In this document: positions 4,103 through 32,988 of the stretch, piece after piece | How positions within the stretch are numbered: the first letter of the stretch is position 1 | Layout of the letters: the number at the start of each line of letters is the position of its first letter | Assembly: GCA_039806955.1 (NCBI GenBank) | Contig: JBDHQI010000003.1 | Coordinates: 29,856 to 93,855, forward strand | Direction: 5' to 3' | From: Verrucomicrobiota bacterium | Lineage (GTDB): Bacteria > Verrucomicrobiota > Verrucomicrobiia > Limisphaerales > JADLHS01 | DNA length: 64,000 nt | The notes under the pieces: generated by a model | Seen by the model: only the letters and a program-made list of their open reading frames with translations | What the model was told of the DNA's origin: nothing | The model's database searches: none | Program-made: the position numbers and the translations under genes

Positions 4103-4127
4103 ATTACGTTGTCGGAGACGGAATCCC
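4103..4127 (-). promoter_or_regulatory. ECF-type promoter candidate GGGATT-N13-CGTAAT
   Basis: Minus strand reads GAGGGATTCCGTCTCCGACAACGTAATCAAT. Geometry is the same as five other sites in the window. It lies 121 nt upstream of the 3982 start, ahead of the RND operon 1 genes. Confidence 0.55.
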
Positions 4128-4150
4128 TCCAGATTTTTTCTGTGGCCTGC

Positions 4151-4534
4151 TTAATGAAGCGGAGCGTATGGGACGGTGAGATAAACGTGGTGTGCGATGT
4201 ATTGGCTGGCCGCAAAATGCGCTTGCGTGCCCGATGCCGGATGGAAATGCACCTTCACGGATCTTCCTGGTTCAATCTCCTCGGGCCGAATCGGAATCCC
4301 GTTCTTCCAAAACTTTGTGCTCCTGTCCCACGCGAAGACAACAGGCTCACCCGGCTTCAACGGCAACAAGGTGAGACTTTGGTTTGTGAGATTTATGGAC
4401 TGGAGTGTGCCGTCGAAGCTCAAGCCGTGAATTGATCCGGGGTAGGCGCGGTGACTCGCGCAACCAGACCAAACCAAACCGGCCATGAGGAGAGTAAAGC
4501 CAGCGATCAGGAAATTCTTTCGCGTGGTTTTCAT
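4151..4534 (-). CDS. small lipoprotein, tandem paralogue of 4531-4872
   Basis: Start moved to MKTTRKNFLIAGFTLLMAGLVWSGC (lipobox). ATGA overlap with the upstream stop (4531-4534). It shares S-I-(N/E)-L-T-N..L.L...K....F.W..ST.F motifs with its neighbour. Confidence 0.6.
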   Translation of the reverse strand: MKTTRKNFLIAGFTLLMAGLVWSGCASHRAYPGSIHGLSFDGTLQSINLTNQSLTLLPLKPGEPVVFAWDRSTKFWKNGIPIRPEEIEPGRSVKVHFHPASGTQAHFAASQYIAHHVYLTVPYAPLH

Positions 4535-4872
4535 TTCTGATTTCGGTTGGCCTCGCTCCACCGCACTTCACGCAACACAAGTTTTCCGCTCTCTCTGCGG
4601 TAATACACCTTGATGGGCTGGCCTGCACGAAGTGAATTGGGCGATGTCTTTTGCCCGCCAACAAGAAAGCGCGTGGAATCCTTCCAGATGAAGATGCGAT
4701 TGGTCGCAGCCTTGGGTTCAGTCAGAACCAGAGTATGGTTCGTCAGCTCAATGCTTTGAACCACACCTTGAGCCGGATGCTGCACGGGCGGACGCGCCTG
4801 AGTCTCGAATGCCGCCAACGTCACGCCGAGCAGAATCAGAAAGCGAGTTAAAATGAGCGCGGGGAGTTTCAT
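4531..4872 (-). CDS. small secreted protein, tandem paralogue of 4151-4534
   Basis: Start moved to ATG 4872 (MKLPALILTRFLILLGVTLAAFETQA, signal peptide). The upstream part of the 173-aa track ORF is Arg/Gly-rich and looks non-coding. Confidence 0.6.
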   Translation of the reverse strand: MKLPALILTRFLILLGVTLAAFETQARPPVQHPAQGVVQSIELTNHTLVLTEPKAATNRIFIWKDSTRFLVGGQKTSPNSLRAGQPIKVYYRRESGKLVLREVRWSEANRNQK

Positions 4873-4919
4873 AGGTCTTTCATTGGTTCTCTTGTGGCAA
4901 AAAGACTGCGCGACACCGT

Positions 4920-5222
4920 TCAGTGTTGCATCAATAACGTTGCGCCTTTTACCGGCTCGCTGCTTCCAACGCTTGTGTGATGGCCCGCGTTGTTGGTGGC
5001 GCAGGAGGTCGTGATCACCGCGAGCAACACGGCCAGCGCCGCCGCTTGGCACGCTTTGATTGCGCGCGGTGATCGAATTGTGCTTGCGGAGTTCATTGAT
5101 GGTTGCTCAATGAGATTGCTGTTTCCCGGCGTGGGAATCGGGCGGGACGCCGCCGCGCACATTGCCAGAACGAAGAGCGCTGCGAGCAGCGTCCACAGAA
5201 TTGCGATGAGCCAGATTCCCAT
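4920..5222 (-). CDS. small hydrophobic protein (or a 58-aa His-containing lipoprotein from an internal start)
   Basis: 100-aa ORF with two hydrophobic segments. The internal MNSASTIRSPRAIKACQAAALAVLLAVITTSC/ATNNAGHHTS..LLMQH would be a short lipoprotein. There is no homology anchor. Confidence 0.35.
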   Translation of the reverse strand: MGIWLIAILWTLLAALFVLAMCAAASRPIPTPGNSNLIEQPSMNSASTIRSPRAIKACQAAALAVLLAVITTSCATNNAGHHTSVGSSEPVKGATLLMQH

Positions 5223-5258
5223 AACCGGTTTGTGTTTTGGTTGGTGACGTGACGTGCC

Positions 5259-5729
5259 TTACTTCAGCGGCGCAACTTCCACGTTTTTCTTCTCCATGCC
5301 TTTGGTGGCAACGCTGCTGCCCTTGCTCGTGTTGCAGCATGCGGCACTTTCCGCGCCGCATGACGAGCAAGTGTGGGTGGCAACGGATTGTTTGGCTTTG
5401 CCGTGGCCCACGATTTTCCAATCCGTTCCGCAGCCGTCGCAGAGGTGCGTCGAGACGCGGATGAGCGGCTTGTTTGCCCCTCGCGCGGAATAATCCACTC
5501 GCTCCGTCACTTTGTCTTTGCACTTTGCGCACGGCATCGCCGGGATTTCGGCAACCGCAGGAACAGGACTGTGATTCCGCTTATACTCATCGAGGAACTG
5601 GCGCTGTTTCGGCGAGGCAGTAATGCCATCGTCGCCCGTGGGTTTGTATTGGGCCTGTGCTGAACCGGCGAACAGGGACAGGGCAATGCCTGCCAGCGCC
5701 GCGATCAGGAGGTTGTTTGTGCGTTTCAT
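5259..5729 (-). CDS. secreted fusion protein: one ASPK repeat + 8-Cys domain + VAPLK tail
   Basis: Signal peptide MKRTNNLLIAALAGIALSLFAGSAQA, then GDDGITASPKQRQFLDEY. The Cys domain follows: PCAKCK..THLCDGCG..HGKA..THTCSSCGAESAACCNT..KGMEKK. It ends NVEVAPLK. Confidence 0.75.
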   Translation of the reverse strand: MKRTNNLLIAALAGIALSLFAGSAQAQYKPTGDDGITASPKQRQFLDEYKRNHSPVPAVAEIPAMPCAKCKDKVTERVDYSARGANKPLIRVSTHLCDGCGTDWKIVGHGKAKQSVATHTCSSCGAESAACCNTSKGSSVATKGMEKKNVEVAPLK

Positions 5730-5794
5730 AGTTTGCCTTTCGTTTTGTGGTGGTTTGTTTGTTGGTGTGATCCCTTTCGCCCGATGTAAATTGC

Positions 5795-6091
5795 CTATTT
5801 GCCGGTCCAGACAGTGACGGAGGGCGTCGCGTTGTTCGGCGCGTGCAACTCAATGAGCCGGGCAGCGCCGCCCTTGGCGGTCTTCGCTTCGTTGCGGGAA
5901 GGCGTTGCTGACCTGGACGTCCAGATGGTGACGGACGCCGTGGCATTGTTCGGCGCGTGGAGTTGAATCAACTGCGAAGCGCCGCCTTTGGCCGTCGAGG
6001 TTTCGGCGGCGGCGACAATTCCCGCGCTCGTGACGAGCAGAGCTGTTGCGATAGTGAGCCGGGCTAGCGCCGTGATTCGATTCGTTTTCAT
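5795..6091 (-). CDS. secreted protein with two tandem ~40-aa repeats
   Basis: Start moved to ATG 6091 (MKTNRITALARLTIATALLVTSAGIVAA). Repeats are AKGGASQLIQLHAPNNATASVTIWT and AKGGAARLIELHAPNNATPSVTVWT. Confidence 0.6.
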   Translation of the reverse strand: MKTNRITALARLTIATALLVTSAGIVAAAETSTAKGGASQLIQLHAPNNATASVTIWTSRSATPSRNEAKTAKGGAARLIELHAPNNATPSVTVWTGK

Positions 6092-6125
6092 ATTCGTGGG
6101 CTTTCGTCGTGAATTCATTCCGCCT

Positions 6126-6575
6126 CTACTTGAGCGGCGCGACCTCGATGGTTTCCGCCGCAGGCTTGTAACCCCGCGCGAGCCACGGAAACTGTTCAAT
6201 GGCCCTCGGGCTGGCCGCGTAAGCGCGATTCTTGAGCACCCTGGCAATCTCACTGTTCACGGATGCTGGTGTGGTCGTCGGCTTCGCGGTGTTGACGCGG
6301 GCCAACTGCGGGAACTGCTCCAACATGCGCGGGCTGGCGGCCAGCGCGCGGTTGTTCCTGATGTTGGCTGGAACGCTGTCGAAGCGTGTGCTTGATGCCG
6401 TCGTCGCCGACGACTGACGTGTCAGCCAGGGGAACTGCTCCTTCGCACGCGGACTGGCGGCGATGGCGCGGTTGGACAAGTCTTTGACCGAGAAGTCGGC
6501 GGCTTGGATGGTTGCGGTTGCGGTGAGGAGAGCGGCGGCGACCGCTCCCAGCAGAAGTGTTTGTGTCGTTTTCAT
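6126..6575 (-). CDS. secreted repeat protein (3x AASPR..EQFPxL) with IEVAPLK tail
   Basis: 149-aa ORF with a signal peptide ..ATATIQA. Repeats are RAIAASPRAKEQFPWL, RALAASPRMLEQFPQL and RAYAASPRAIEQFPWL. The C-terminus is ETIEVAPLK. Confidence 0.7.
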   Translation of the reverse strand: MKTTQTLLLGAVAAALLTATATIQAADFSVKDLSNRAIAASPRAKEQFPWLTRQSSATTASSTRFDSVPANIRNNRALAASPRMLEQFPQLARVNTAKPTTTPASVNSEIARVLKNRAYAASPRAIEQFPWLARGYKPAAETIEVAPLK

Positions 6576-6634: not shown

Positions 6635-6659
6635 AATACGTTCGCAGAGTGGAAATCCC
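6635..6659 (-). promoter_or_regulatory. ECF-type promoter candidate GGGATT-N13-CGTATT
   Basis: Minus strand reads AAGGGGATTTCCACTCTGCGAACGTATTAAAG, 60 nt upstream of start 6575. Confidence 0.55.
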
Positions 6660-6761
6660 CTTTGCCATTCCTTGCTATTCGTCGAACATTTTTTGCTCAC
6701 TGCGGCGCAATCGAGGAACGGGATGAAATCCTCTCCGCAAATTGAAGGGCGAGCAGCGGCG

Positions 6762-7022
6762 TTAACTCACCGCAATCAATGATACCTTTTCCCCTTGCGG
6801 GCCGCGCGCCGTGCCCAGCGCGTGGGCATCCAGTGTCGGAACGCCATCAACGAGGAACAGGTAACGATGGTGGCCGTGATGGAGCGGAATCTGGATCGTC
6901 CAGCCGCCATCGGGCTGGCGTTGCATCGGATGCGAGGTGTGATTCCAGTCATTGAAATCCCCCGTCACAAATACCGCTCCGGCTTGGGCGGATCGGTGGA
7001 ACAAGCTGACTGGTTTGCTCAT
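6762..7022 (-). CDS. stand-alone CBM48 / AMPK-beta glycogen-binding-domain-like (E-set) protein
   Basis: Start moved to ATG 7022 (MSKPVSLFHR..). Motif AVFVTGDFNDWNHTSHPMQRQPDGGWTIQIPLHHGHHRYLFLVDGVPTLD fits the xVxVxGxFNxW...W....L.pG.y.Y.f.VDG pattern. No signal peptide. Confidence 0.7.
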   Translation of the reverse strand: MSKPVSLFHRSAQAGAVFVTGDFNDWNHTSHPMQRQPDGGWTIQIPLHHGHHRYLFLVDGVPTLDAHALGTARGPQGEKVSLIAVS

Positions 7023-7140
7023 CCGTTTCGCGGAGTAGCAGTTTGTCGGGAAGCATGAACCCGGTGAGCGCCGAGATGTTTCAGCTTCCACGAGATCAAT
7101 GTCCGTCGTTGCGTAGTTCGGTTGCATAACTCTATCCATG

Positions 7141-7165
7141 ACTACGCCACTCCCGACTCCCGCCC
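7141..7165 (-). promoter_or_regulatory. weak variant of the ECF-type motif (GGGCGG-N13-CGTAGT)
   Basis: Minus strand reads AGGGCGGGAGTCGGGAGTGGCGTAGTCATGG. Spacing is correct (13 nt) and it lies 119 nt upstream of start 7022, but the -35-like hexamer is degenerate. Confidence 0.3.
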
Positions 7166-7223
7166 TTGCCGAAGAAATGGACGCTTGATTGTGAACGGGG
7201 AGAAACTGGACCAATGAAGGGCG

Positions 7224-8534
7224 TCAACGGCTGGAGATTTCTTCCACCATCGCCGTCCAGGTGGAGAGTTCGCGCGACCCTGCGAAACGTCGGCGCAAAT
7301 TTCCCTGCGCATCAATCAGCGCGTAGGTCGGAACTTCTTGCACGTTGAAGCGGAAGACGAGAGAACCGTTCGCGTCCAATAGCACCGGATGATTGATGCT
7401 CATTCGCGAGATCAGCTCCTTGAGAGCAGGCTTGTTCGCCGCGCAGTTGGCGTGGGGGTCAGCAGAGTGCGCGTGATTGTGTTGATGCTCGTGTCCAGCG
7501 CCGCAGTCGTCTTGCGGGCCGACGGCTGGGTCAAACGCGATGCCGACGACTGTCAGTCGCCGGGACTCCTGTTCCTGCAATTGCTTGAGCGTTGCCACAT
7601 CATCGAAACTTGCTGCATTGCCGACTTTCCAAAAGCAAAGCAGAACTGCCTTGCCCTGAAAGTCGGAGAGATGGACTAATCTTCCCTCCGAATCTTCGAG
7701 AGCAAAATCTTTGGCGGGCAATTTGCTGGCAATGATACGTGGCGGCGGGGACGGCTGCGGAAATTCTGCGCGATGCAGCATCCACCACTCGCGCCACTCT
7801 TGCGCGCCGTGACGGATCGCGTCGAGATTGAAAGGCGGAAGTGGGGCTTCATCTGAGCGAGTGAATTTCGGCAGCGCGTGGCTCGAACGGATTCCGAAAT
7901 CCAACCCGGTTGTCTTGCGCAACAGCAAGGCCGCTTGCACGGTCACACGCGGATCGGGATCATCGAGAAGATGAACCGCCAGCGGCACATCGTTGGAACT
8001 GGCAACGCGCTGAAGTTGCTGGAGTGCGAGCACGCGCACGGCTGGGTCGGCATCGTTCGACTGCTGTCGGAGCAAGATCATTGAGTTCGCGCTCCTGGCT
8101 TCTGCCAAAATGTTCATCGCTGGTTCGCGCACATTCAAGTCGGGATCGTTAGCCGCTTCGTTCACGATTGCTTCCATTGCGCCAGCCAGTGCCGGTTCTG
8201 TGTGAAGGCGCGTCTTGAGGTGTTCCATTACAAACTGCTGCACGGTTAGATTGCCACTCCGCCACATTCGCTCCAATGTCGGCGCTCGGTCTGACGTTCC
8301 CTCGACCAGTTCTGATAGCACCGCACCGGACGGCGCATCGGAGCGCAGAGCCAAGGTTATGACCAATTCGTGTCGCACGGGTTTCCAGCAGAGGACGACG
8401 ACTAAGGAGAAAAGCGCGAAGCCTATCAACCACCATCGGTCGCGCGGACCAATCTTCGGCCACCGTTGTCGCGAGGACTCTGAAGCGTTGGTGGGCGCTG
8501 TCGAAACAGTTTGTTTGGCTAATGGCGCTGACAT
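7224..8534 (-). CDS. membrane-anchored HEAT-repeat + thioredoxin-fold (TlpA/redoxin-like) protein lacking the CxxC, with a His-rich insertion
   Basis: 436-aa ORF with a TM (WWLIGFALFSLVVVLCW). HEAT-like DPDLNVREPAMNIL, DADPAVRVLALQQL and DPDPRVTVQAALLL. The redoxin-like C-terminus has KAVLLCFWKVGNAAS where W-C-x-x-C is expected. There is a CGAGHEHQHNHAHSADPHANC loop. Confidence 0.75.
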   Translation of the reverse strand: MSAPLAKQTVSTAPTNASESSRQRWPKIGPRDRWWLIGFALFSLVVVLCWKPVRHELVITLALRSDAPSGAVLSELVEGTSDRAPTLERMWRSGNLTVQQFVMEHLKTRLHTEPALAGAMEAIVNEAANDPDLNVREPAMNILAEARSANSMILLRQQSNDADPAVRVLALQQLQRVASSNDVPLAVHLLDDPDPRVTVQAALLLRKTTGLDFGIRSSHALPKFTRSDEAPLPPFNLDAIRHGAQEWREWWMLHRAEFPQPSPPPRIIASKLPAKDFALEDSEGRLVHLSDFQGKAVLLCFWKVGNAASFDDVATLKQLQEQESRRLTVVGIAFDPAVGPQDDCGAGHEHQHNHAHSADPHANCAANKPALKELISRMSINHPVLLDANGSLVFRFNVQEVPTYALIDAQGNLRRRFAGSRELSTWTAMVEEISSR

Positions 8535-8718
8535 ATTCCCATACCGATTCGAGCAGACGAGTTGGCGAGGCGCGGCCCATGAAACGGTTTGCTATTGCGG
8601 GCCGCGCGCTTCGCTCTTTTGTCTCAACTCATCCGCATCACTTCCTTTCCATTGGTTCGTGTTTTGTGTTTTCGGACCGATCCAAATTTGCTTCGTTCGC
8701 TTCAGGTTCGCGGGAGCG

Positions 8719-9294
8719 TCACTCATTCAAACCCCAATGATTCACGCCTGCACCCTGCTGGATTACGCGCACGGCATCCAGGTCCTCGCCAACATACTTT
8801 GACAATTCAAAGGTGCGGGCTGGGTGATGGGGTGCGTGACCTGACAAATAGTAGTTCACAAAGCAGGCCAGACCGCTGACGCGGGCCGTCTCGCGCAAGT
8901 CGCGCTCCACAAGTGTCTGCGACGGTGTCGTCCCTGCCACAAGCGGAAGCAGAATCACGAGAGCGCCATCCGGCTGCGTGCGCCGCGTGAGCCAGTGGCA
9001 AAGCCAATCTTGCACCGGACGCGGCAGCATGTGTGGATTGCTCGGGCAACAAAATACGACGTCAGCCTCGGCGGCGATGCCCACAGCACGGGCAAAAAGA
9101 CTCCGCTCCGTCAGTGCGTCGAAGCGCCACCAGAAATCACGGAATTCAAATTCCACAGTCAAACTGCGGATCACGCCGAGATACACTTCCTTCGCCGCGC
9201 GGAAGGCCGCATCGTCATCGTATGCCAGTGCCACGGTGATTGGTAAATCGTCCTTTGGTTTGCAGGTCGCGGCGATGGATTTCGGAAGCATCAT
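8719..9294 (-). CDS. hypothetical cytoplasmic protein
   Basis: 191-aa ORF with balanced composition, co-oriented within the operon. It ends ..GVNHWGLNE. No family recognised. Confidence 0.5.
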   Translation of the reverse strand: MMLPKSIAATCKPKDDLPITVALAYDDDAAFRAAKEVYLGVIRSLTVEFEFRDFWWRFDALTERSLFARAVGIAAEADVVFCCPSNPHMLPRPVQDWLCHWLTRRTQPDGALVILLPLVAGTTPSQTLVERDLRETARVSGLACFVNYYLSGHAPHHPARTFELSKYVGEDLDAVRVIQQGAGVNHWGLNE

Positions 9295-9334
9295 AATTTG
9301 TTACGCACCAAGCGGACGAATCCCTCTCACCCAA

Positions 9335-10105
9335 TCAATTCTTGAGAAGACTGTGAACGATGATGAACGCGCCCAAAAGCAGAAGGCCAGTGGCGAGCAC
9401 GCGCGTAAGCCAGAGGCCGGACAGCCGGGCGGCCAGCCACGTGCCCGGCCACAGGCCAATCATTCCACCGAGCGTGAACAGGCCGGTCGTTTCCCAAGAC
9501 ACCCGTTGACCTGTGAGAAAATGAGCGCCGGTCGCTGCTGCGCTGACGAGTGCCACGCTGAACATGGCAGTCGCGATGGCGCGATGAATCTCCACGCGAC
9601 TGATGAGCACCAATCCGGGAACGAGAATGAATCCGCCGCCCACGCCAAGCAGTCCCGACAGCACGCCCGTGCCGAACCCAAGCGACGCCAGCCGGAAAAA
9701 TTGATGTGTCCTTGCGCCGGAGTTTTCACCCGTTGGACCGGATGGATTCTGCGTGCCGTTGGATGGTTGAAGCCATAATCGAATCGCAACGATCAACACG
9801 AGCGCGGCAAATACCAGCAGCAGCCAGCGTTCAGGCAGGTGTCGGCCAATCAACGCACCCACGGGCGCGCCCGCTAACCCGCCGAAGGCAAGCTGCCAGC
9901 CCAGGCGTTTATCAATTCCACGGCCGCGTGTGGTCTGAATCGCACGCACTCCCGCCATCGCACCCACCGCAATCATCGAAGTGCAAACCGCCGCGTGCGG
10001 GCGCAGATGCAGGGCATACACCAGCAATGGCACGGCGAGGGTTGATCCGCCGTTGCCGGTCAACCCAAACAAGACTCCTACAATCAAACCGAGAATCAGT
10101 GTCAT
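9335..10105 (-). CDS. TSUP (TauE/SafE) family anion-exporter-type permease
   Basis: 256-aa polytopic membrane ORF. It has the duplicated 4-TM pattern with GxxGGG-type motifs (FGLTGNGGSTLAVPLL; GLLGVGGGFILVP). Confidence 0.85.
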   Translation of the reverse strand: MTLILGLIVGVLFGLTGNGGSTLAVPLLVYALHLRPHAAVCTSMIAVGAMAGVRAIQTTRGRGIDKRLGWQLAFGGLAGAPVGALIGRHLPERWLLLVFAALVLIVAIRLWLQPSNGTQNPSGPTGENSGARTHQFFRLASLGFGTGVLSGLLGVGGGFILVPGLVLISRVEIHRAIATAMFSVALVSAAATGAHFLTGQRVSWETTGLFTLGGMIGLWPGTWLAARLSGLWLTRVLATGLLLLGAFIIVHSLLKN

Positions 10106-10166: not shown

Positions 10167-10628
10167 TTAAGAGACCGCGAACAGATGTAAGCCATCAACT
10201 GGTTCGTTGCGATGCGGCTTCCCGCCGATGAGCGCGGCCAGTTGATCCGAATTCACCGGCTTTTCGAGAAACGCCATTGCACCCAAGCGGCGCGCGGCCT
10301 CGCGGCGCTCCGCGTTGCTGGTGGCGCTCATCAAAATGACTGGCAGTTCCGGCCAGCGAAGGCGGATGAACTGGAGCAAATCAAAGCCGTTCATCACGGG
10401 CATCTCGACATCACTGATGACTATCCCGACCGGTTGTTCGGCGAGCTGGTGGATGGCGTCTTCGCCGTCAAAGGCCACGATGACCTCAAATCCTATGCGG
10501 CGCACGAGTGATTCGACCCAGCGGGCAGTTATCGGATTGTCGTCCACGACAAGAATCGGTTTTGTTTCTGCATCCATACCTGGTGATACGCCGGTTTGCC
10601 TGCCAACCCTCGCGGCGTTGGCGGTCAT
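10167..10628 (-). CDS. single-domain response regulator (CheY-like receiver)
   Basis: ILVVDDNP...VISDVEMPVMNGFDLL...PVILMSA receiver signature with no output domain. An alternative start is ATG 10577. Confidence 0.85.
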   Translation of the reverse strand: MTANAARVGRQTGVSPGMDAETKPILVVDDNPITARWVESLVRRIGFEVIVAFDGEDAIHQLAEQPVGIVISDVEMPVMNGFDLLQFIRLRWPELPVILMSATSNAERREAARRLGAMAFLEKPVNSDQLAALIGGKPHRNEPVDGLHLFAVS

Positions 10629-10631
10629 TCG

Positions 10632-25695: not shown

Positions 25696-26957
25696 TTCAC
25701 GGGCAGCACGGCGGCAGTTGCCGTTTCCCACTCGGTCTTGGCGCGGACAAATCCAGCGAGTGACTCAAGGTAGGAGAGGCGCAAATCCGTCAACTGTTGT
25801 TGCGCTTGAATGACGGCGGTGATGGTGACGAGGCCGTCGGCGTAGCCCTTTTGCAGCAGCGCGATGTTTTCCTCCGCGAGCTTGATGGATTCCTCGCGAT
25901 ACTGGCGCAGGATGTCGAGCAATCGGCGCATCTGGTTCTCCGCCGTCTGCGCCTCGGTGGCGATGCGCAAATCGAGCGCGTTTAACTCGGCTTCGGCGCG
26001 CTGTTGGGTGGCTTGCGCTTCGTTGACTCGACCTTGATTGCGATTCCAAAATGGCAGCGGAATCGAAACACCCACGCCAAGGAAATTGTCGGTCTTTGTG
26101 CCAATGGGCGCATCGAACTTGCCCACCGAGCGGCTGTAATCAAAGCCCACCGTCCAATCCTCCCACTTCTCTGCCTTGGCCAGTTTGATTTCCGCTCCCG
26201 CGCGGTCAATGCCGAGCGCCGCCAACTGACGGTCGGGGCGGCGGGCAATCGCCTGGCGCGAAATCTCTGCAACGGTATTCGTGTCAAACTCTGCGCTCGT
26301 CGCGCCGGACATCTGGAGCGGCGTTTGCGGCTCGCGCCCAAGCAGGCGGTTCAGCGTCGTCGCGGCGATTTCCTGCTGATTGCTCAACGTCGCCTGCGCC
26401 AACGCCAGCCTCTGCAATTCCAGCTTGGCTGAGTTCACATCAGCAGCAGAAACCTCGGCGACTTTCAATCGCTTCTCCGAAACCTCGATGACTTTTTGAA
26501 TGACGCCCTGAATCTCCTGATTCGCCTTGAGCTTCTCCTGCGTGACGAGTAGTTCGCGGCTCAGCCCAAGCGCTTCACCCGCAAGCAGCCGCTCCTGATT
26601 GCGCACTTCGGCCAACGCCATCGCCACGTCCACGCGGGCGACGGCCTTGGCTTTCTTCAGTCGTCCGGTGATTGGGAAGCGTTGCTTGAAGCCGGTCGCG
26701 AAATCGTATTCGCCGTCGTTGGCAAACGCGCTGTCGTTCTTCCCGCCAAGTTCAAACTCCGGATTGGGCCACAGCCCGGCCTGCTTCAGCCGCCCCTCGG
26801 CTTGGCGGATGGCAAAGCGCGCGGCGGCAAGATCGCGGTTCTCTGCCAGCGCCGTTGCCACGGCGCTTTCCGGCGTGAGGTTGGTCGCTATTGGCCCGGC
26901 GATTGCGCTGAACCCGGCCAACAGAACCACTGAATAAATTGAAAATCGTTTGAACAT
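25692..26957 (-). CDS. TolC-family outer-membrane efflux protein (CzcC-like)
   Basis: 421-aa ORF with a signal peptide and two OEP repeats. It lies directly upstream of the MFP and RND pump. Confidence 0.9.
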   Translation of the reverse strand: MFKRFSIYSVVLLAGFSAIAGPIATNLTPESAVATALAENRDLAAARFAIRQAEGRLKQAGLWPNPEFELGGKNDSAFANDGEYDFATGFKQRFPITGRLKKAKAVARVDVAMALAEVRNQERLLAGEALGLSRELLVTQEKLKANQEIQGVIQKVIEVSEKRLKVAEVSAADVNSAKLELQRLALAQATLSNQQEIAATTLNRLLGREPQTPLQMSGATSAEFDTNTVAEISRQAIARRPDRQLAALGIDRAGAEIKLAKAEKWEDWTVGFDYSRSVGKFDAPIGTKTDNFLGVGVSIPLPFWNRNQGRVNEAQATQQRAEAELNALDLRIATEAQTAENQMRRLLDILRQYREESIKLAEENIALLQKGYADGLVTITAVIQAQQQLTDLRLSYLESLAGFVRAKTEWETATAAVLPVK

Positions 26958-27046
26958 AATTCGTCATCTAAAATTGGATTTCGGAAATAATCTGCCTGTA
27001 ACAAGACAGAGGACTCCCCTGACACAAAGGACAGGGAACGGAGAGG

Positions 27047-27090
27047 AACTTGAATCAGGCCCGCGCGATGGCGCGCAGTTGATTCAAGTT
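27047..27090 (-). other. two-tier intercistronic stem-loop (11-bp outer + 5-bp inner stem)
   Basis: AACTTGAATCA (27047-57) pairs with TGATTCAAGTT (27080-90). Inner GCGCG (27063-67) pairs with CGCGC (27072-76). It starts at the stop codon of 27089-27550 and precedes the tolC-like gene. Confidence 0.5.
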
Positions 27091-27550
27091 AAACGAGGGG
27101 CGGAGCGTGACTGCGGAACGCCGGACCAAGGCACACTTCAGGCGTGAAGATGAATTCACGGTGTGGCGGTTGGCGCGAAATTGGCGCTTCGGACTGAACG
27201 AAAGTCAGCGCCTGGGACAGCCAAAGCAGATTAAACGAGAGCAGCTTCCCAAAATCAGGCTTGGTAAGGATGGTTTGGTGGGCCGAAGGCGCGGCGGCTG
27301 TGAGCGAAGAACAACAGGCATGTTCGTCGCCGCTGTTCTTGTCCGAATCGTGCGAGTGATGATCGGAATCTGCGGACGCAGGAGCAGCGTCGTGCTCATG
27401 TTGGACTGCACCGTCTGCATGATGATCTGCACCGATCAAGGACTCCACCGAGCAGAAGCCGGACGCAGCAACCCAGACCAATAGCGACACCACCGCACAG
27501 AGGCGAAGGGCCAGCGATGATTTGCGTTGTCGCGAATGGGTCATGCTCAA
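27089..27550 (-). CDS. His/Asp-rich membrane-anchored or secreted protein
   Basis: 153-aa ORF with a hydrophobic N-terminus (LALRLCAVVSLLVWVAASGFC), then ADHHADGAVQHEHDAAPASADSDHHSHDSDKNSGDEHACC. It holds the position occupied by small accessory genes upstream of czcC-type genes. Confidence 0.55.
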   Translation of the reverse strand: MSMTHSRQRKSSLALRLCAVVSLLVWVAASGFCSVESLIGADHHADGAVQHEHDAAPASADSDHHSHDSDKNSGDEHACCSSLTAAAPSAHQTILTKPDFGKLLSFNLLWLSQALTFVQSEAPISRQPPHREFIFTPEVCLGPAFRSHAPPLV

Positions 27551-27603
27551 TTGAAATCCGCCCGTATATTATTGAAATTGATTCTCACCGTCAACGCCGC
27601 TGG

Positions 27604-27894
27604 TTACTTCTTGGCCTTCTTTTCCTCCTCGGAAAGTTTCTTCATGTATTTGGCACTGTCCTTCTTGAAGTCGGAGAGGCAGCCCTTGCAGCAGAGTTTG
27701 ATTTCTTGGCCTTCGTGCGTGAACACGTAAGGATCGCCCATGCTGCCAAGCTTTTCGCCATCGGTGATGCAGGTCGTGAGCGGATACGGCTTGGGTTTGT
27801 CAGCTTTCTTGGCATCGTCAGCAAATCCGGCGAACGGCGCGGCCAGCAGGGTGGCAGCGATGAGTGCGGCAAAGGCGTGTTTCAATGATTTCAT
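27604..27894 (-). CDS. secreted YHS/TRASH-like Cys protein
   Basis: Signal peptide ..APFAGFA, then YPLTTCITDGEKLGSMGDPYVFTHEGQEIKLCCKGCLSDFKKDSAKY (C..CC-x2-C-x3-F pattern as in YHS/TRASH metal domains) and a Lys/Glu tail. Confidence 0.6.
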   Translation of the reverse strand: MKSLKHAFAALIAATLLAAPFAGFADDAKKADKPKPYPLTTCITDGEKLGSMGDPYVFTHEGQEIKLCCKGCLSDFKKDSAKYMKKLSEEEKKAKK

Positions 27895-27932: not shown

Positions 27933-27957
27933 ATTACGCCGGTGCGCGGCAAATCCC
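27933..27957 (-). promoter_or_regulatory. ECF-type promoter candidate GGGATT-N13-CGTAAT
   Basis: Minus strand reads TGAGGGATTTGCCGCGCACCGGCGTAATACAAG, 39 nt upstream of start 27894. It heads the RND operon 2 gene string. Confidence 0.55.
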
Positions 27958-28069
27958 TCAAAAATCTTTTGGCCGTGCCAGCGCATACCTGATCAGACAC
28001 CGGGACGGGCTGAAGATTCAATTTGACGCGGCTGGCACGCCACCCGTCTCATGTTGAGGGATAACCCGT

Positions 28070-29362
28070 ATGGACACGACTGCCTTGGTTGAATTGATCG
28101 CCCGCTACAAAGCCGACCCGGAGTCGGTCTATAACACCTGGTTCATCAACGGCGCGGAGCGCATGAAGGCGTTTCGCGCGATTCGACGCGGGGTGAAGGA
28201 CACGGTTGACGCCATCGCCGCCGGCACTTTTGGCAATGATTTCAAAGGCTCGCCGCTGGAAATCGTGCTCACGGCCATCACGGAGCAAAAGCAGGTCTTT
28301 GAGGGCGCGGCCCATCCGTTTTACTGGAAGCCCAAGCTGCGGATTCCCGACATTTACGAGAATCAGATCAACAAACAGAAGTTTGGCGCATTTCTGCAAG
28401 CGTGCCTCGTCGCGACTCGCGAAGACCAGGTGCTTGCCGAAATGAGTCGCCTCGGTTCGGCGCAAATCAAAGGGCTTGGCCCGGCGGCTGCCAGCATCAT
28501 TTACTTTTTACACCCAACGCTCGTTCCGCCGTTCAACACGGCGATGGTCAACGGATTCAACGCACTGTTTGCGGACAAGAAGAAACTCGGTTCGTGGACC
28601 AGCTATCTCGACATGCGCGAAGTCATCGTCCGCACGAATGACGAAGTGCGCGATCATCTCTCGAAAGACCTTGGCGCGTTTGCTGGTTTGTTATTTGAAA
28701 TCGGCAGTGGACGACTCGTCATCGCGGGCAATGCCGAGAACGTGCTGCAAGACGCAAAAGAGAAAGCGGTGAAAGTCGCCCGTGCTCGCCACAAAGATGT
28801 CCTGGCCGAACAAGAGGAAGAATCCGAGCACACGCGGATGCAACACCTGCTCATCAAAATCGGGCGTTCGCTGAAATACGATGTCCATGTCGCCCGCAAC
28901 GACCGGCATCGCACCTGTCACGGCGAAAACTTTGCGATGCTCACCGTGCCGCAACTACCACCGCAGAACTTGTCGGCGGAAGTGATGGACACCGTGACAT
29001 TGATTGACGTGATCTGGCTCAAGCCCGGCAACGGCGAGATTGTGAGCGCGTTTGAAATCGAGAAAAGCACGTCCATCTATTCCGGCATCCTGCGGCTGGA
29101 GGATTTAGCGCGCTCGATCCCCAACGGCGCGTGCCCGCTTTACCTCGTCGCGCCGAATGACCGCGAGAAGGAAGTCTTGGCACAATTGGCCCGTCCCGCG
29201 TTTCGCGCCGACCTTGAAAAAATCTCGCTCGCGTTTCTGCCGTTCAAGGAGCTTGCCGAACATTGCGACGCGCTTTGCAAGTTTGGAGACGACCACACGA
29301 TCTTGCAGAAGATTGCACGCGGCTTGAAGTCTTCCGCGCCGCCGCTTCAGCCGGCCAATTGA
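28070..29362 (+). CDS. PD-(D/E)xK nuclease-fold protein (restriction-endonuclease-like), solitary
   Basis: 430-aa ORF. The C-terminal HLLIKIGRSLKYDV...TLIDVIWLKPGNGEIVSAFEIEKSTSIYSGILRLEDL fits a D...(D/E)xK core (IDV..EIEK). The N-terminal ~230 aa domain is unassigned. It is the only plus-strand gene between 19.4 and 34.4 kb. Confidence 0.55.
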   Translation: MDTTALVELIARYKADPESVYNTWFINGAERMKAFRAIRRGVKDTVDAIAAGTFGNDFKGSPLEIVLTAITEQKQVFEGAAHPFYWKPKLRIPDIYENQINKQKFGAFLQACLVATREDQVLAEMSRLGSAQIKGLGPAAASIIYFLHPTLVPPFNTAMVNGFNALFADKKKLGSWTSYLDMREVIVRTNDEVRDHLSKDLGAFAGLLFEIGSGRLVIAGNAENVLQDAKEKAVKVARARHKDVLAEQEEESEHTRMQHLLIKIGRSLKYDVHVARNDRHRTCHGENFAMLTVPQLPPQNLSAEVMDTVTLIDVIWLKPGNGEIVSAFEIEKSTSIYSGILRLEDLARSIPNGACPLYLVAPNDREKEVLAQLARPAFRADLEKISLAFLPFKELAEHCDALCKFGDDHTILQKIARGLKSSAPPLQPAN

Positions 29363-29371
29363 GCTTCGTTC

Positions 29372-29869
29372 TCAATTTCCAACGCGACTGTAAGTGTCGG
29401 TGCGCGAAACGTCGTCGTGATTCATCATCTGCTCGCGCAGGCAGGTTTGCTCCTGCACCCAGGATAAATAGCGCCTACCTTGTTCCGGCGGCATGGCGCG
29501 GCTGACTTCAAAGAAATGCTTGAGCATCGCGGTCTGACATTCGCTTCGCATTTTGGCCCGTTCGGTGAGTGCGTTTTCAATTGCGGGCGTCAGGTCGGAA
29601 GTGGTGGCAAGCAATTGGCCCAGCCTGTCGTTCATTTGCCGGATGAGACGACAACGCTCCCGGCACTGCGGGAGATAGGCTTCATGCAATTTTGAAAGCC
29701 GCTCGAATTCCCCGTCGCTTAATTTGAACTCCTGCTTGAGCCAGACGAGTTCGGGTTGGCGGCTTTGCAACAATGCTCGCGGCCCGGTCGTTCCTGCCAG
29801 ATAGATGCAGTAATAGGAAGCAATTGCTGCCATCATACCGAAACCGAGAATCAAGAATCCGCGTCGCAT
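29372..29869 (-). CDS. membrane-anchored helical periplasmic sensor, CnrX-like architecture (copy 2)
   Basis: N-terminal TM (FLILGFGMMAAIASYYCIYL). It shares PEL.WL..EF, LH.AY.P.C.E.C, R.EC.TAML.HF and MPPEQG.RYL.WVQ.QT with 31666-32154. Confidence 0.7.
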   Translation of the reverse strand: MRRGFLILGFGMMAAIASYYCIYLAGTTGPRALLQSRQPELVWLKQEFKLSDGEFERLSKLHEAYLPQCRERCRLIRQMNDRLGQLLATTSDLTPAIENALTERAKMRSECQTAMLKHFFEVSRAMPPEQGRRYLSWVQEQTCLREQMMNHDDVSRTDTYSRVGN

Positions 29870-29872
29870 AGC

Positions 29873-30217
29873 TCACCTGGCCGCTTGATAGGGATCAACC
29901 GATTGCACATAGCGCTGGCTCATCTGTGTGCTAACTCGCAACCTCTCCTGCTGCGCCTGCGCCCACCCCGCACTTGCACCAATGACGAGGAGGATCGCCA
30001 CGTAGGAAACGGCCAACCCGGGGCGGCGCAACCGCGCGTCAACCCAGCGCGCGCAAGTCAGCCACAGGGCAACGAGAGTGGAAGGCTCGTCTTCTTGGCG
30101 CGCGATTTGTCGCCAGACTCTCTCTTGGAAACGCGGTGGCAACGTGACTGTGATCTTGCACTCGCGCAACAAGGCGCTCAATCCCGCGTCCTGCTCAATT
30201 CGTGCTTCGGCTTTCAT
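29873..30217 (-). CDS. single-pass anti-sigma-like protein, CnrY-like architecture (copy 2)
   Basis: 114 aa with LPPRFQERVW in the cytoplasmic part, one TM (LAVSYVAILLVIGASAGW) and a short periplasmic tail ending YVQSVDPYQAAR. Paralogue of 32155-32493. Confidence 0.6.
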   Translation of the reverse strand: MKAEARIEQDAGLSALLRECKITVTLPPRFQERVWRQIARQEDEPSTLVALWLTCARWVDARLRRPGLAVSYVAILLVIGASAGWAQAQQERLRVSTQMSQRYVQSVDPYQAAR

Positions 30218-30227
30218 TGTTTGATTC

Positions 30228-30257
30228 GGAGGGCGGTGGGTTTGAGCCGCGCCCTCC
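30228..30257 (-). other. GC-rich stem-loop between repeat-protein gene and anti-sigma-like gene
   Basis: GGAGGGCG (30228-35) pairs with CGCCCTCC (30250-57), 11 nt upstream of the 30217 start. Its position is equivalent to the hairpin at 32501-32525. Confidence 0.4.
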
Positions 30258-30287
30258 AGTTTGGTGGTTGCCGGTTTTGATTCGCTC

Positions 30288-30692
30288 TCACTTCAATGGC
30301 GCGATCTGGTAAGCGCCGTTGCGCTCGTCGAGAAACTGACGGAGTTTCGGCGAGGCTGTGATACCGTCATCGCCGGTCGCGCGATAGCCGACCTTGACGA
30401 CTGCTGTTCCGGGCATGCTCTCCACACCACGGCTGTCATTGATGAATTGCCGCAGTTTCGGCGAAGCGGTTATCCCATCCACGCCGGTGGCTCGATAACC
30501 GACGGACGCGACGGTGGCAGACTTCGCGCCTTTCACCATCGGCTTGCCGCGCTCATTCATAAACTGGCGCAGTTTGGGAGACGCCGCGATGCCATCATCG
30601 CCCACGGTGTTGTGTTGAGCCTGGCTTTGGCTGGTCGAGGCGAGCAAAGCGACTGCGGCGGCTGCAATCAGAATCAATTTTGTATTTTTCAT
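30288..30692 (-). CDS. secreted repeat protein (3x DGI(T/A)ASPKLRQF) with YQIAPLK tail
   Basis: Start moved to ATG 30692 (MKNTKLILIAAAAVALLASTSQSQA). Repeats are GDDGIAASPKLRQFMNERG, GVDGITASPKLRQFINDSRG and GDDGITASPKLRQFLDERNG. It ends AYQIAPLK. Confidence 0.75.
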   Translation of the reverse strand: MKNTKLILIAAAAVALLASTSQSQAQHNTVGDDGIAASPKLRQFMNERGKPMVKGAKSATVASVGYRATGVDGITASPKLRQFINDSRGVESMPGTAVVKVGYRATGDDGITASPKLRQFLDERNGAYQIAPLK

Positions 30693-30738: not shown

Positions 30739-30763
30739 ATTACGCCGCAGCCGGGAAAATCAC
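30739..30763 (-). promoter_or_regulatory. ECF-type promoter candidate GTGATT-N13-CGTAAT
   Basis: Minus strand reads CGAGTGATTTTCCCGGCTGCGGCGTAATGAAGA, 47 nt upstream of start 30692. Confidence 0.5.
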
Positions 30764-30834
30764 TCGCAGGAAGGAAAAAGCCGTCTCGCTGCGAACTTCG
30801 GCAGTGAGACGGCTGAGAAGGAATGGCCTTGGGG

Positions 30835-31041
30835 TCAGCGTTTTTCGACTAGCGCCATACCGCACTTGGGGCAGCTACCGGGCTTGTCCTGCACAACTTC
30901 CGGGTGCATACCACATGTGTATTTGACGGCCTGTCCACTGCCTTGCGTGGAGGATTCTTTTTTGCAGCCGGTCGCACCAATGGCAATGACTGCGACTGCT
31001 GCAACCGTGAACGCAGCGATGATGAGTTTGGATGTCTTCAT
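30835..31041 (-). CDS. small lipoprotein consisting of one HMBD module
   Basis: [26 protein letters not shown], then a short linker, then [28 protein letters not shown]. Confidence 0.7.
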
Positions 31042-31072: not shown

Positions 31073-31669
31073 TCACGCGTAACTTTTCAGCAGCCAGCCG
31101 AGGTTTTCGCGCAAGAGTTTTCGGGCGCGGTAAATCCGCGTCTCCACCGCCTTTGGAGTGCAAGCCAGGATCGCGCCAATCTCCGCATGGGAAAGTTCCT
31201 CATATTCGGAAAGGATGAGTGGCGTGCGGAGTTCTTCGGGCAGTTGACCCACCGCGTTACGAACGGCTTCCGCCCGCTCTGCGCCTTGCAGTGACTCGCT
31301 GGGTGTCGGTTTGTCCTCCGCCACGCTCTCCCGGAAGCTCTCGCCGGTAACTTCGTTTTCTGCGTCCAGCGACACTTGCGGATGGCGCGTGCGGTAGCGG
31401 TAGCGGCTTTTGACGAGGTTGGTGGCGATAACGTAAAGCCATGTCGAAAACTTGTGGCTCGCATCGAACCTCGCGCGGTTCTGGTAAACGCGCACAAATG
31501 TCTCCTGCGCGAGATCAGCGGCATCCTCCTCGCTTTGCAAACTGCGGACCAGATAGTGAAACAGTTTCTCGGCGTGTCGCTCCATGAGATCGTTCAACGC
31601 CGCGTCGTGGCCGGCGACCAATCGCGCCATGTCCGTCCGATCCGGGTCGTCGGTCGTGGCGGAATTCAT
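31073..31669 (-). CDS. ECF sigma factor (CnrH-like position in a Y-X-H module)
   Basis: Start moved to ATG 31669 ([17 protein letters not shown]..), giving an ATGA overlap with the upstream stop. Region 2 is [42 protein letters not shown]. Region 4 is [33 protein letters not shown]. Confidence 0.85.
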
Positions 31670-32154
31670 GGTTTGTTCATCGGAGCGACAGACGGCGAAT
31701 CGCCGGGCATCATCTTGCTCGGCTTCAAGGTTTGCTGCTGCACCCAATCGAGATAGCGTTTGCCCTGCTCGGGGGGCATGGTCTGCGCGACCTTGTAGAA
31801 GTGGTCAAGCATCGCGGTTTCACACTCGGCGCGGATTTCAGCAGCTTGGGCGAGCGCCTGTTTGATCTCCGGGGTGATGATGTTGGTGGCGGCGAGCAAC
31901 CTTTGGATTTCTGCGTTCTTCGCGTCAATCGTGCGGCACATTTCCTCGCACTTGGGCGCGTAAGCATTATGCAGTTCCATGACACGCGCCAACTGCGCGT
32001 CGGTGAGTTGAAACTCCATCTGCAACCACGCCAGCTCCGGGCGGGTGTTGCGTTCAACAGAACGCTGTGCGGATGTTTTGCCGAAATAGATGCAAAGGTA
32101 GGCGCACACCGCGAGCGCCAGCCCGCCGAAGATGATGAGCCACGGACGTTTCAT
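31666..32154 (-). CDS. membrane-anchored helical periplasmic sensor, CnrX-like architecture (copy 1)
   Basis: N-terminal TM (WLIIFGGLALAVCAYLCIYF). Helical periplasmic domain with C-x3-C (PKCEEMC), AEC, HF and MPPEQGKRYLDWVQQQT. Confidence 0.7.
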   Translation of the reverse strand: MKRPWLIIFGGLALAVCAYLCIYFGKTSAQRSVERNTRPELAWLQMEFQLTDAQLARVMELHNAYAPKCEEMCRTIDAKNAEIQRLLAATNIITPEIKQALAQAAEIRAECETAMLDHFYKVAQTMPPEQGKRYLDWVQQQTLKPSKMMPGDSPSVAPMNKP

Positions 32155-32493
32155 TCAGTTGCGGGGCGCTTGATACGGGTCAATGGACTGAACGTAGAGA
32201 GAGCGCATCTTGGATTCGGTTTGCGCGGTCTTGTCCTGCGCTTGCAAGTAGCCCGCTCCCAAGCCGACGAACAGGAGCACGGCGACATACACGGTGGCAA
32301 ATGCCGGACGCCGAAACACGGCCTCAATCCAGCGAACAGCCCCGGCAAAGACGCTCTGCGGCTTGCTTGCTTCCGCCCGGTCAATGGCTTTCCAAACCCG
32401 CTCTTGAAAGCGTGGCGGCAATGATGATTGTGGCTTCCACTCGTGGAGCAGTCCGCTCAACTGCCGGTCATTTTCGGGAATAGGTGTTTTCAT
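32155..32493 (-). CDS. single-pass anti-sigma-like protein, CnrY-like architecture (copy 1)
   Basis: 112 aa with LPPRFQERVW, a TM (FATVYVAVLLFVGLGAGYL) and a tail ..YVQSIDPYQAPRN. Its stop abuts the next start (TGAATG). Confidence 0.6.
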   Translation of the reverse strand: MKTPIPENDRQLSGLLHEWKPQSSLPPRFQERVWKAIDRAEASKPQSVFAGAVRWIEAVFRRPAFATVYVAVLLFVGLGAGYLQAQDKTAQTESKMRSLYVQSIDPYQAPRN

Positions 32494-32500
32494 AACGTGT

Positions 32501-32525
32501 GGGCGGCGGATTCATTCCGCCGCCC
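32501..32525 (-). other. perfect 10-bp GC stem-loop between repeat-protein gene and anti-sigma-like gene
   Basis: GGGCGGCGGA (32501-10) pairs with TCCGCCGCCC (32516-25) with a 5-nt loop. It ends 8 nt upstream of the 32493 start codon and has no U-tract. Confidence 0.5.
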
Positions 32526-32558
32526 GCTAAGTGTCGTTTGCGCGCCCGACATTTCAAG

Positions 32559-32909
32559 TTACTTCAGCGGCGCGATTTGAACTTCAGCCTTGCTGACGGC
32601 GTTGGCGCGGAGCGCGGCCTCGTAGCGCGAGTCTTTGGGCGACATCGTGGGGCGCGGCGCATGGGCCAGGTCAATACTCGGACCAGTGCTGGGCACAGAG
32701 CGGAAACTGCGGGCGAGTTCCCACGCTTTGGCGTTTCCTGCCGGGCGGTCCAGCGCCAGATTCACGTCGCTGGTGGCGGCGGGGACTTTCTTGAGCGAAT
32801 CGGCGAGGGCTTTGGCCTTCGGCGAATAGAGGGGTTCACCGGCATTGGCGTTGGCCGCGAGCGTGAACACACCGACAGCGGCAACTGCGAGGAGGATCAT
32901 TTTTTTCAT
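32559..32909 (-). CDS. secreted divergent SPK/AKA-repeat protein with VQIAPLK tail
   Basis: Start moved to ATG 32909 (MKKMILLAVAAVGVFTLAANANA). Degenerate repeats are YSPKAKALADSLKKVP, GNAKAWELARSFRSVP and MSPKDSRYEAALRANA. It ends AEVQIAPLK. Confidence 0.7.
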   Translation of the reverse strand: MKKMILLAVAAVGVFTLAANANAGEPLYSPKAKALADSLKKVPAATSDVNLALDRPAGNAKAWELARSFRSVPSTGPSIDLAHAPRPTMSPKDSRYEAALRANAVSKAEVQIAPLK

Positions 32910-32963
32910 AGCTTTATCTTTCTTTTTGCTGCGGCGTTTTGCCGCTGTTAATTCACATCCTTG

Positions 32964-32988
32964 AATACGCCGGGGGTCAAAGAATCCC
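32964..32988 (-). promoter_or_regulatory. ECF-type promoter candidate GGGATT-N13-CGTATT
   Basis: Minus strand reads TGGAGGGATTCTTTGACCCCCGGCGTATTCAAGG, 55 nt upstream of start 32909. The unit it heads contains the sigma gene 31073-31669. Confidence 0.55.

Follow-up and report, generated by a model that had tools for sequence, protein, structure and literature searches.

A metal-resistance island of about 33 kb in an uncultured soil or wastewater member of the Verrucomicrobiota (Limisphaerales) encodes efflux pumps, small secreted proteins, and three extracytoplasmic function (ECF) sigma factors, and the question raised by this locus is whether its many operons answer to one switch. The stretch that was analysed, hereafter the window, has 64,000 nucleotides (contig JBDHQI010000003.1 of assembly GCA_039806955.1, positions 29,856 to 93,855 of the forward strand). 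A sequence-only reading of it had noticed six minus-strand sites composed of a G-rich hexamer, 13 nt, and a CGTAWT-like hexamer, and had proposed that they are the ECF-style promoters of one predicted regulon. The motif, GAGGGATT-N13-CGTAWT, is enriched in the window, conserved among relatives, directed toward genes at short distance, and equivalent to the promoters of CnrH-family modules. It is very probably a promoter read by an ECF sigma factor of the island, namely sigA (31073-31669, minus strand) and probably also sigB (13910-14575, minus strand). A large verrucomicrobial metal-resistance regulon of this sort, resembling the CnrYXH nickel/cobalt system, is of a largely expected kind. It would nevertheless mean that one predicted ECF switch drives a sigma cascade, two resistance-nodulation-division (RND) pumps, and no fewer than four families of secreted Cys/His-rich proteins that lack annotation; these families would gain a metal-stress context from their assignment to the regulon.

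The two-box motif in the window and in related genomes

At two mismatches or fewer, the motif has seven minus-strand matches in the window, every one of them just 5' of genes. Dinucleotide-preserving shuffles gave an expectation of 0.44 +/- 0.66 matches, and a count of seven was reached in 0 of 100 shuffles. When the same two boxes were separated by N8-N12 or N14-N19, between zero and three matches per spacer were obtained. The motif search found all six sites of the sequence-only reading with their sequences and 13-nt geometry; their locations stood, but the upper coordinates were 1-2 nt short. The corrected 27-nt spans, all on the minus strand, are 32964-32990 (P1), 30739-30765 (P2), 27933-27959 (P3), 13800-13826 (P4), 6635-6661 (P6), and 4103-4129 (P7). 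A strong site at 9300-9326 (P5, minus strand), with the sequence GAGGGATT-N13-CGTAAC, had been overlooked, and the ATG at 9294 begins 5 nt downstream of it.

A position weight matrix (PWM) trained solely on 108 sites from other genomes was run over both strands of the whole window, and its seven highest positions were the seven strong sites, with scores of 13.2-43.8 bits. The eighth was a further overlooked site, candidate P4b (10585-10611, minus strand, 11.9 bits), 7 nt 5' of the ATG of a response regulator. The six original sites are real, and the total is seven to eight in place of six to seven. The weaker site that had been counted as the seventh (7165-7141; span 7141-7167, minus strand) is marginal, with 6.0 bits, while the best plus-strand position scored 5.1 bits. 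Between the last base of the -10 box and the first start codon there are 38-121 nt for the six sites, in agreement with the earlier 39-122 nt, and 5-121 nt over all sites. No housekeeping sigma-70 promoter (TTGACA-N16-18-TATAAT) was matched at the motif sites, and a scan of positions 1-35000 yielded background numbers of it; an intrinsic-terminator scan of the same range also gave background numbers and did not aid the delimitation of operons.

For comparison, 79 genome loci around homologs of the sigA/sigB type (55-95% identity, 1.27 Mb, labelled with L-numbers) were assembled. They were chosen by similarity to sigA and sigB, and nearly all are metagenome-assembled genomes of Verrucomicrobiota, many of them Limisphaerales or Pedosphaera. 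With the N13 spacing there were 131 matches (25 exact) in the 79 loci, as compared with 5-21 at other spacings, and 71 of the 79 loci were positive. Among all dyads of two 5-mers with a gap, counted on the sigma strand of 75 loci that are at most 80% identical, GAGGG-N15-GCGTA, which is the same motif, ranked first. It was present in 53 of the 75 loci versus 0.69 at other gaps (z = 48), the counts being normalised against other gaps since raw counts are swamped by GC-rich coding periodicity.

The matches in relatives are also oriented and placed as promoters would be. The sigma strand carries 110 of 121 matches, a homolog of a window gene starts within 150 nt downstream of 78 of the 121, and the next homologous gene lies a median 93 nt away. 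The commonest first gene after the motif encodes either a protein ending in an xAPLK tail or the single-pass protein of an operon with the order (xAPLK)-single-pass-PF13801-sigma, and other first genes encode TRASH-like, His-rich, DUF3347, OEP, CBM48-like, and response-regulator proteins. The extended consensus among relatives is aAaAtttTTTGAGGGATTT-N10-GCGGCGTATTAA, with a conserved tG 7-8 nt past the -10 box. A motif-first scan, in which a metagenome collection was searched for exact GAGGGATT-N11-GGCGTAWT, found a regulon-gene homolog downstream in motif orientation at 47 of 118 usable sites, as compared with 2 of 119 in the mirrored upstream control. The refuting outcome that had been named earlier, a motif at background frequency with no positional bias, is thus excluded.

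It could be argued that the copies play no part in regulation and are either a chance pattern or remnants of duplicated or mobile DNA. The island does look mobile, with an identical sigA protein in 132 indexed blocks of public assemblies, most of them from metagenomes or sequencing runs, and with helicase and Fic genes and a tRNA-Asn gene nearby, and it contains paralogous units. However, conservation is confined to the two boxes, and flanks and spacers vary both among the window sites and between the genomes of relatives. The shuffles never matched the observed count, and the pattern is specific in spacing and strand and is enriched beside the same gene families in unrelated metagenomes. This explanation is effectively refuted.

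The same geometry bears on whether the motif might be an operator for a nearby regulator and not a sigma promoter. Several regulators are indeed encoded in the island, including response regulators, a LuxR-type protein (17472-18209), and a MerR protein (15774-16244). However, the two boxes are unlike each other, non-palindromic, and spaced to the exact base; they always face the downstream gene at 5-121 nt, in the geometry of a -35 and a -10 element. The motif also accompanies the unit of sigma factor, anti-sigma factor, and sensor in different phyla, at loci without these regulators. An operator is therefore highly improbable, and in the sigma-promoter reading GAGGGATT would be the -35 element and (G)CGTAWT the -10 element, with transcription predicted to start about 7-8 nt past the -10 box.

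Likeness to CnrYXH and the choice of sigma factor

In the literature, CnrYXH consists of a short single-pass anti-sigma factor, a PF13801 periplasmic sensor, and a sigma factor, with an RND efflux operon that has the same promoter type. The CnrYXH-cnrCBA(T) system of Cupriavidus metallidurans pMOL28 (ECF291s9) and the window have a common gene order of anti-sigma (position -2), PF13801 sensor (position -1), ECF sigma, and RND efflux operon, and in both the sigma operon is autoregulated. The autoregulated arrangement that had been read for the 31073-31669 sigma gene is supported, with P1 in front of its own operon. In relatives, 63 anti-sigma homologs were found in 75 loci at the same position relative to sigma, and a site of at least 12 bits lies within 900 nt 5' of 54 of the 63.

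The promoters are alike as well. In the cnr promoter sequences, which were taken directly from pMOL28, a GAGGG-type -35 box and a (C/G)CGTAT -10 box are seen: cnrCp is GAGGGGAA-N14-CGTATA and cnrYp is AAGGG-N17-CGTATA. As compared with both, CGTA is 1 nt nearer to the G-box in the verrucomicrobial motif. The nickel-induced start of cnrYp has been mapped 7 nt after CGTATA in a 2026 transcriptome paper (PMC13492112), which also cites earlier primer-extension and run-off transcription work as verification of the CCGTATA -10 box. Judged by its sequence, the motif is of the CnrH/ECF291 promoter type and is not new in kind.

Five more proteobacterial plasmid loci with CnrH homologs were compared, of which three are sphingomonad modules. 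The ECF291 modules of sphingomonads (hypothetical single-pass protein, 'periplasmic heavy metal sensor', and sigma) have the identical motif and spacing, TGAGGGAT...(T/C)GCGTAT, which is GAGGG-N15-GCGTA. It is located 5' of the first gene (the anti-sigma), 5' of the multicopper oxidase gene (copA), and, on the other strand, 5' of the divergent copC; with both strands counted, there are eight exact dyads in about 51 kb. Copper-associated ECF291 modules of this type, in which copAB and divergent copCD accompany the three genes in the order seen in the window, are carried by plasmids of Sphingomonadales and Caulobacter. They differ in that their sigmas are 28-32%, their sensors 16-18%, and their anti-sigmas 20-25% identical to those of the window, their sensors retain the CnrX-type HxxxH...E...H ligands, and their cargo is CopABCD, whereas that of the window comprises RND pumps and HMBD (heavy-metal-binding domain), TRASH, and xAPLK proteins. 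No experimental work on these Sphingomonadales/Caulobacter copper modules was found in the literature. Taken with the N13 enrichment, the top-ranking dyad, the orientation, and the motif-first scan, this promoter in CnrH-type modules upholds the earlier proposal of an ECF-style promoter that defines one predicted regulon. A GAGGG-N15-GCGTA specificity common to sigmas that are only about 30% identical, from two phyla, bears on ECF classification and on the design of orthogonal ECF/promoter switches.

The published ECF291 consensus has a different appearance. The ECF Hub consensus is ATACGC for -35 and CCCTCA for -10 (PMC13492112, Table 4), and that of ECF291s1 is TCTCC/TACGCA (Casas-Pastor supplement). 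Both read as reverse complements of TGAGGG...GCGTAT, and in sphingomonad intergenic regions the reverse-complement string on the sigma strand is the mirror of the copC promoter (L089 3165-3192, L091, and L092). The published consensus is therefore probably strand-flipped, having been picked up from divergent copC promoters. The orientation of the motif is fixed by the verrucomicrobial sites because they are one-directional, and a flip would have consequences for promoters assigned by means of the published consensus. In the ECF classification supplement, no group has a GAGGG/GGGAT motif, and no group containing Verrucomicrobia has this gene context. A literature search for a verrucomicrobial metal ECF system found nothing relevant.

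Which sigma factor reads the motif has to be judged from the proteins. The sequence-only reading had named the sigma factors at 31073-31669 and 13910-14575; both genes are there, but the region has three ECF sigma genes, the third being sigC (12475-13341, minus strand), which lies downstream of P4 and is of a second type, 38% identical to sigA. All three products contain Sigma70_r2 and Sigma70_r4_2, with regions 2 and 4 only, and TIGR02937 was matched above its cut-off. sigA (198 aa) is 70% identical to sigB, and 28-34% identical to CnrH and five more sigmas of ECF291 context. In region 4, the verrucomicrobial sigma family has the invariant residues K-A-V-E-x-R, which are also present in CnrH and the sphingomonad sigmas, whereas SigW has GTVKTR in place of KAVETR. 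This common element fits a common -35 specificity, although it is no proof of one. A search with sigA returned 5633 homolog clusters at E <= 1e-10, and among the matches listed the single organism label is Verrucomicrobiota.

The region-4 residues also give some weight to a promoter read mainly by another sigma, either sigC or one encoded elsewhere. sigC too has K-A-V-E-x-R, and at 38% identity it is as near to sigA as are the CnrH-family sigmas that use the same motif; three sigma genes are, moreover, available in the island. However, most comparison loci hold only a sigma of the sigA/sigB type, yet the motif precedes the sigma operon and the efflux genes there, and sigC homologs are rare in these loci. 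Reading by another sigma is quite unlikely, and sigA remains the favoured candidate.

The sensors are homologous to CnrX. Sensor A (31666-32154, minus strand), a membrane-anchored periplasmic protein, matches Metal_resist PF13801 with 48.2 bits (cut-off 29.2), and sensor B (29372-29869, minus strand), which is 44% identical to it, with 35.6 bits. The best matches of sensor A in the PDB are CnrX and NccX, and a profile-profile comparison (hhalign) with the CnrX family gave 95.1% probability and E 3e-8 over 96 columns. At the CnrX ligand positions H42, H46, E63, H119, and M123 the sensors have A, M, H, H, and V, so that H119 is kept, and three Cys residues additional to CnrX are conserved across the sensor family. 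Because of the conserved Cys, His, and Met residues of the sensors and the HMBD/TRASH cargo, soft metals (e.g. Cu, Ag, Cd, Zn, and Hg) might speculatively be the inducer rather than Ni/Co.

The two putative anti-sigma factors, A (32155-32493, minus strand, 112 aa) and B (29873-30217, minus strand, 49% identical to A), have 112-114 aa and a single hydrophobic span and are encoded at position -2; A has an N-terminal cytoplasmic part of about 60 aa and a short C-terminal tail. An NCBIfam 'anti-sigma' model matched weakly (E 2.5e-4, below cut-off), and an anti-sigma role is suggested by position, size, and topology alone. Anti-sigmas of this kind are described in the literature as highly variable.

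Several observations weigh against a CnrYXH-like switch read by sigA. The sigma itself scores higher with SigW/RpoE-type sigmas (100 and 89 bits) than with CnrH (67 bits), and NCBIfam agrees; the island holds three sigma genes, any one or more of which may read the motif; and sigB has no copy of this promoter of its own. The putative anti-sigma has no detectable homology to the CnrY family (hhalign probability 0.3%), and no solved structure in the PDB resembles it. Lastly, neither H42 nor H46, both metal ligands of CnrX, is kept in the sensors.

Other known systems are less alike. SigW of Bacillus subtilis (ECF30) and RpoE/AlgU-type sigmas are the best overall matches of sigA (5wuq with 100 bits; NCBIfam SigW model with 133 bits, below cut-off). 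The SigW consensus is TGAAAC-N16-CGTA, and a CGTA-type -10 is hence in common. However, the -35 box is GAGGGATT here and of AAC type there, and the anti-sigma type, sensor, and regulon are also unlike. CorE/CorE2, CarQ, and FecI-type sigmas resemble the window system as ECF sigmas that switch on metal-homeostasis genes, but in the CorE type the sigma itself is the metal-binding protein, in the cytoplasm, FecI-type sigmas answer iron starvation via outer-membrane receptors, and none pairs a short anti-sigma with a periplasmic PF13801 sensor (PMC6851896). ECF291 itself is 98% proteobacterial and 1.6% cyanobacterial, and the list of groups for Verrucomicrobia does not include it (Casas-Pastor 2021). 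On its identities, its SigW/RpoE scores, and this phylum range, sigA would not be filed as a member of ECF291.

From CnrYXH the window also differs in its host phylum (Verrucomicrobiota as compared with Proteobacteria), its seven to eight promoters, two pumps, sigma-less sensor unit, and extra sigma genes, and in an additional xAPLK-tail gene that opens the unit. By analogy, the unit would work like CnrYXH, with the same promoter type and with a sigma that falls outside ECF291 in these comparisons. At rest, the sigma would be tethered at the membrane by the small single-pass anti-sigma encoded two genes upstream. Binding of metal by the membrane-anchored, CnrX-like periplasmic sensor encoded one gene upstream would lift the inhibition, and the released sigma would then activate its own operon in positive feedback, together with the second sensor/anti-sigma unit, sigC (a possible cascade), both RND operons for metal efflux, and a number of operons for small secreted proteins that are Cys/His-rich or uncharacterised. 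The inducing metals, the cognate sigma, and the start sites in this scheme are inferred.

sigB has neither an upstream motif nor a neighbouring anti-sigma gene. It may be the partner of the sigma-less unit B and so provide a second input into the same promoters, which is inference only. An argument for this pairing from best-hit labels in other genomes was abandoned, the labels being mixed. A set of merR, merT-HMA, and zf_CopZ genes (15774-17446, plus strand) is divergent from an operon of a response regulator, an 8-Cys protein, and sigB (13910-15606, minus strand), and sigB may be expressed from the intergenic region on the MerR side (15607-15773).

Genes behind the motif copies

The contents of the downstream genes had been described correctly, as confirmed by Pfam, NCBIfam, and translation; all the operons below are on the minus strand. 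P1 (GAGGGATT-N13-CGTATT) has the highest PWM score in the window, 43.8 bits, and its orthologous position is kept in most related loci. It precedes unit A, which begins with a small secreted protein (32559-32909; 116 aa) that has a signal peptide, ends in IAPLK-COOH, and has no Pfam or NCBIfam match. Putative anti-sigma A, sensor A, and sigA follow, and the last gene encodes a small HMBD protein (30835-31041; Pfam HMBD 54 bits). P2 (GAGTGATT-N13-CGTAAT, 28.8 bits) precedes unit B (29372-30692), which has no sigma gene and is paralogous to the xAPLK/anti-sigma/sensor part of unit A; its xAPLK-tail protein (30288-30692) has three repeats.

P3 (GAGGGATT-N13-CGTAAT, 37.3 bits) has orthologous sites before TRASH/His-rich/OEP genes in other genomes. 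In the window it lies before an efflux operon (19439-27894) that, according to Pfam, encodes a TRASH/YHS-like periplasmic protein, a His-rich protein, a TolC-like OEP, a CzcB-like membrane fusion protein (MFP), a CusA/CzcA-family RND pump, and two HMBD proteins. The pump matches NCBIfam TIGR00914 with 826 bits, as compared with a cut-off of 701. The second efflux operon (1-3982) extends beyond the window and is preceded by P7 (GAGGGATT-N13-CGTAAT, 30.2 bits). It encodes a 48-aa lipoprotein with a His/Cys tail (3836-3982), an OEP (2364-3788), an HMBD protein (1923-2345), and a CusB-like MFP with four HMBD domains (2-1921), and motif-preceded homologs of this OEP operon are present in at least eight other loci.

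Behind P4 (GAGGGATG-N13-CGTATC, 28.3 bits), which has an ortholog before the same genes in L020, Pfam identified an operon (10632-13678) of a CBM48-like protein, sigC, a DUF3347 protein, a second CBM48-like protein, an 8-Cys protein, and a P-II-like protein. Candidate P4b (GAGGGTTG-N13-CGTATC) is followed by the response regulator (ATG 10577) and then TauE (9335-10105), and the motif is found directly 5' of response-regulator homologs also in L020 and L079. P5 (22.1 bits) precedes the genes of a 191-aa protein without family, a HEAT-repeat/AhpC-TSA redoxin protein, and a third CBM48-like protein (6762-9294; Pfam), the last of which is the gene behind the marginal 7141-7167 site. In L032, homologs follow two orthologous sites at a distance of 6-7 nt. 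The regulon thus includes three small CBM48/AMPK-beta-like proteins (6762-7214, 11539-11865, and 13376-13678), the last one being encoded directly 5' of sigC, and homologs of these are behind the motif in L020 and L079 too.

P6 (AGGGGATT-N13-CGTATT, 13.2 bits; ortholog in L032) precedes a cluster of secreted proteins (4151-6575). Two of its members carry an xAPLK tail, one together with repeats (6126-6575) and one together with an 8-Cys domain (5259-5729); the others are another repeat protein (5795-6091) and two more small proteins (4531-4872 and 4151-4534). Pfam gave no significant match for the proteins of this cluster, two of which end in VAPLK. Likewise, Pfam and NCBIfam assigned no family to the xAPLK, repeat, 8-Cys, His-rich, and 191-aa proteins.

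At P5 and P4b the -10 box is only 5 nt (ATG 9294) and 7 nt (ATG 10577) before the start codon, and the mRNAs of the 191-aa protein and the response regulator are predicted to be leaderless; comparably short distances from box to ATG are seen at the orthologous sites in L032, L020, and L079. The 120-nt leader after P7 (3983-4096, minus strand) contains a strong hairpin (-41 kcal/mol, z -3.6), and P1, P2, and P6 are trailed by shorter 5'-proximal hairpins. Rfam detected no riboswitch in the leaders, that of P7 included, and its sole match was a tRNA.

The xAPLK tail, the aspartic protease, and the island

The window encodes four xAPLK-tail proteins, namely those at 32559-32909, 30288-30692, 6126-6575, and 5259-5729 (all minus strand). 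In the 79 loci, xAPLK is the commonest C-terminal tetrapeptide, with 33 of 4483 crude open reading frames (ORFs) as compared with 9 for the runner-up. All 33, spread over L008-L086, lie on the sigma strand and have a signal peptide and a tail of the form [QEK][IVL]APLK-COOH, but their bodies are otherwise diverse (repeats, 8-Cys domains, and CC motifs). The motif is present at 12 bits or more within 300 nt upstream of 29 of the 33.

Directly 5' of P1, and without a motif of its own, is the gene of a secreted, bilobal, retropepsin-like aspartic protease (33081-33932, minus strand), recognised by Pfam and by two DTG motifs. A homolog is present in 24 of the 79 loci, spread over L016-L081, and usually ends right before the motif (e.g. 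L021 7403-8242 and L052 7810-8640). The protease was found with 15 of 30 operons that have an extra first gene and with none of 18 that open with the anti-sigma gene (Fisher p = 2e-4). About half of the verrucomicrobial units carry this accessory pair of xAPLK protein and protease, and CnrYXH is without it.

The tail may be a recognition tag for the protease, which would give an extra proteolytic input or feedback on the anti-sigma, or its C-terminal Lys may anchor metal-binding proteins to peptidoglycan; either idea is tentative and rather doubtful. Possible analogues of a tag are the sensing of outer-membrane protein C-termini by DegS and the role of PerP as a site-1 protease, and an analogue of anchoring is Braun's lipoprotein, the C-terminal Lys of which is attached to peptidoglycan. 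A search of the literature for a link between a retropepsin and an anti-sigma factor found nothing relevant. If either idea were true, it would mean a new signalling or anchoring principle on an ECF switch and a new C-terminal sorting or recognition motif. Together with the Cys-rich CnrX-like sensors, the pair is a feature beyond CnrYXH and a target for study.

To the right of the island are a large DEAD/ResIII helicase, an AAA_30 protein, and a Fic protein (34455-44000), followed by tRNA-Asn (50058-50132) and core metabolic genes. The GC content dips to 0.53 at 38-40 kb, and an identical sigma in L006 has a different left flank. The island is probably mobile or was integrated close to the tRNA gene. 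An NmeDI_C-like 'type II restriction endonuclease' gene (28070-29362, plus strand) is convergent to the sensor/sigma units. Its homolog on a Caulobacter plasmid, which is 45% identical, abuts the 3' end of the ECF291 sigma gene (L090 4555-5820, minus strand) and is convergent as in the window. In L018 and L042 (about 10575-11864), endonuclease homologs that are 85-88% identical abut sigma genes whose products are only about 70% identical. This recurrent adjacency of endonuclease and sigma suggests either co-mobility or a functional link.

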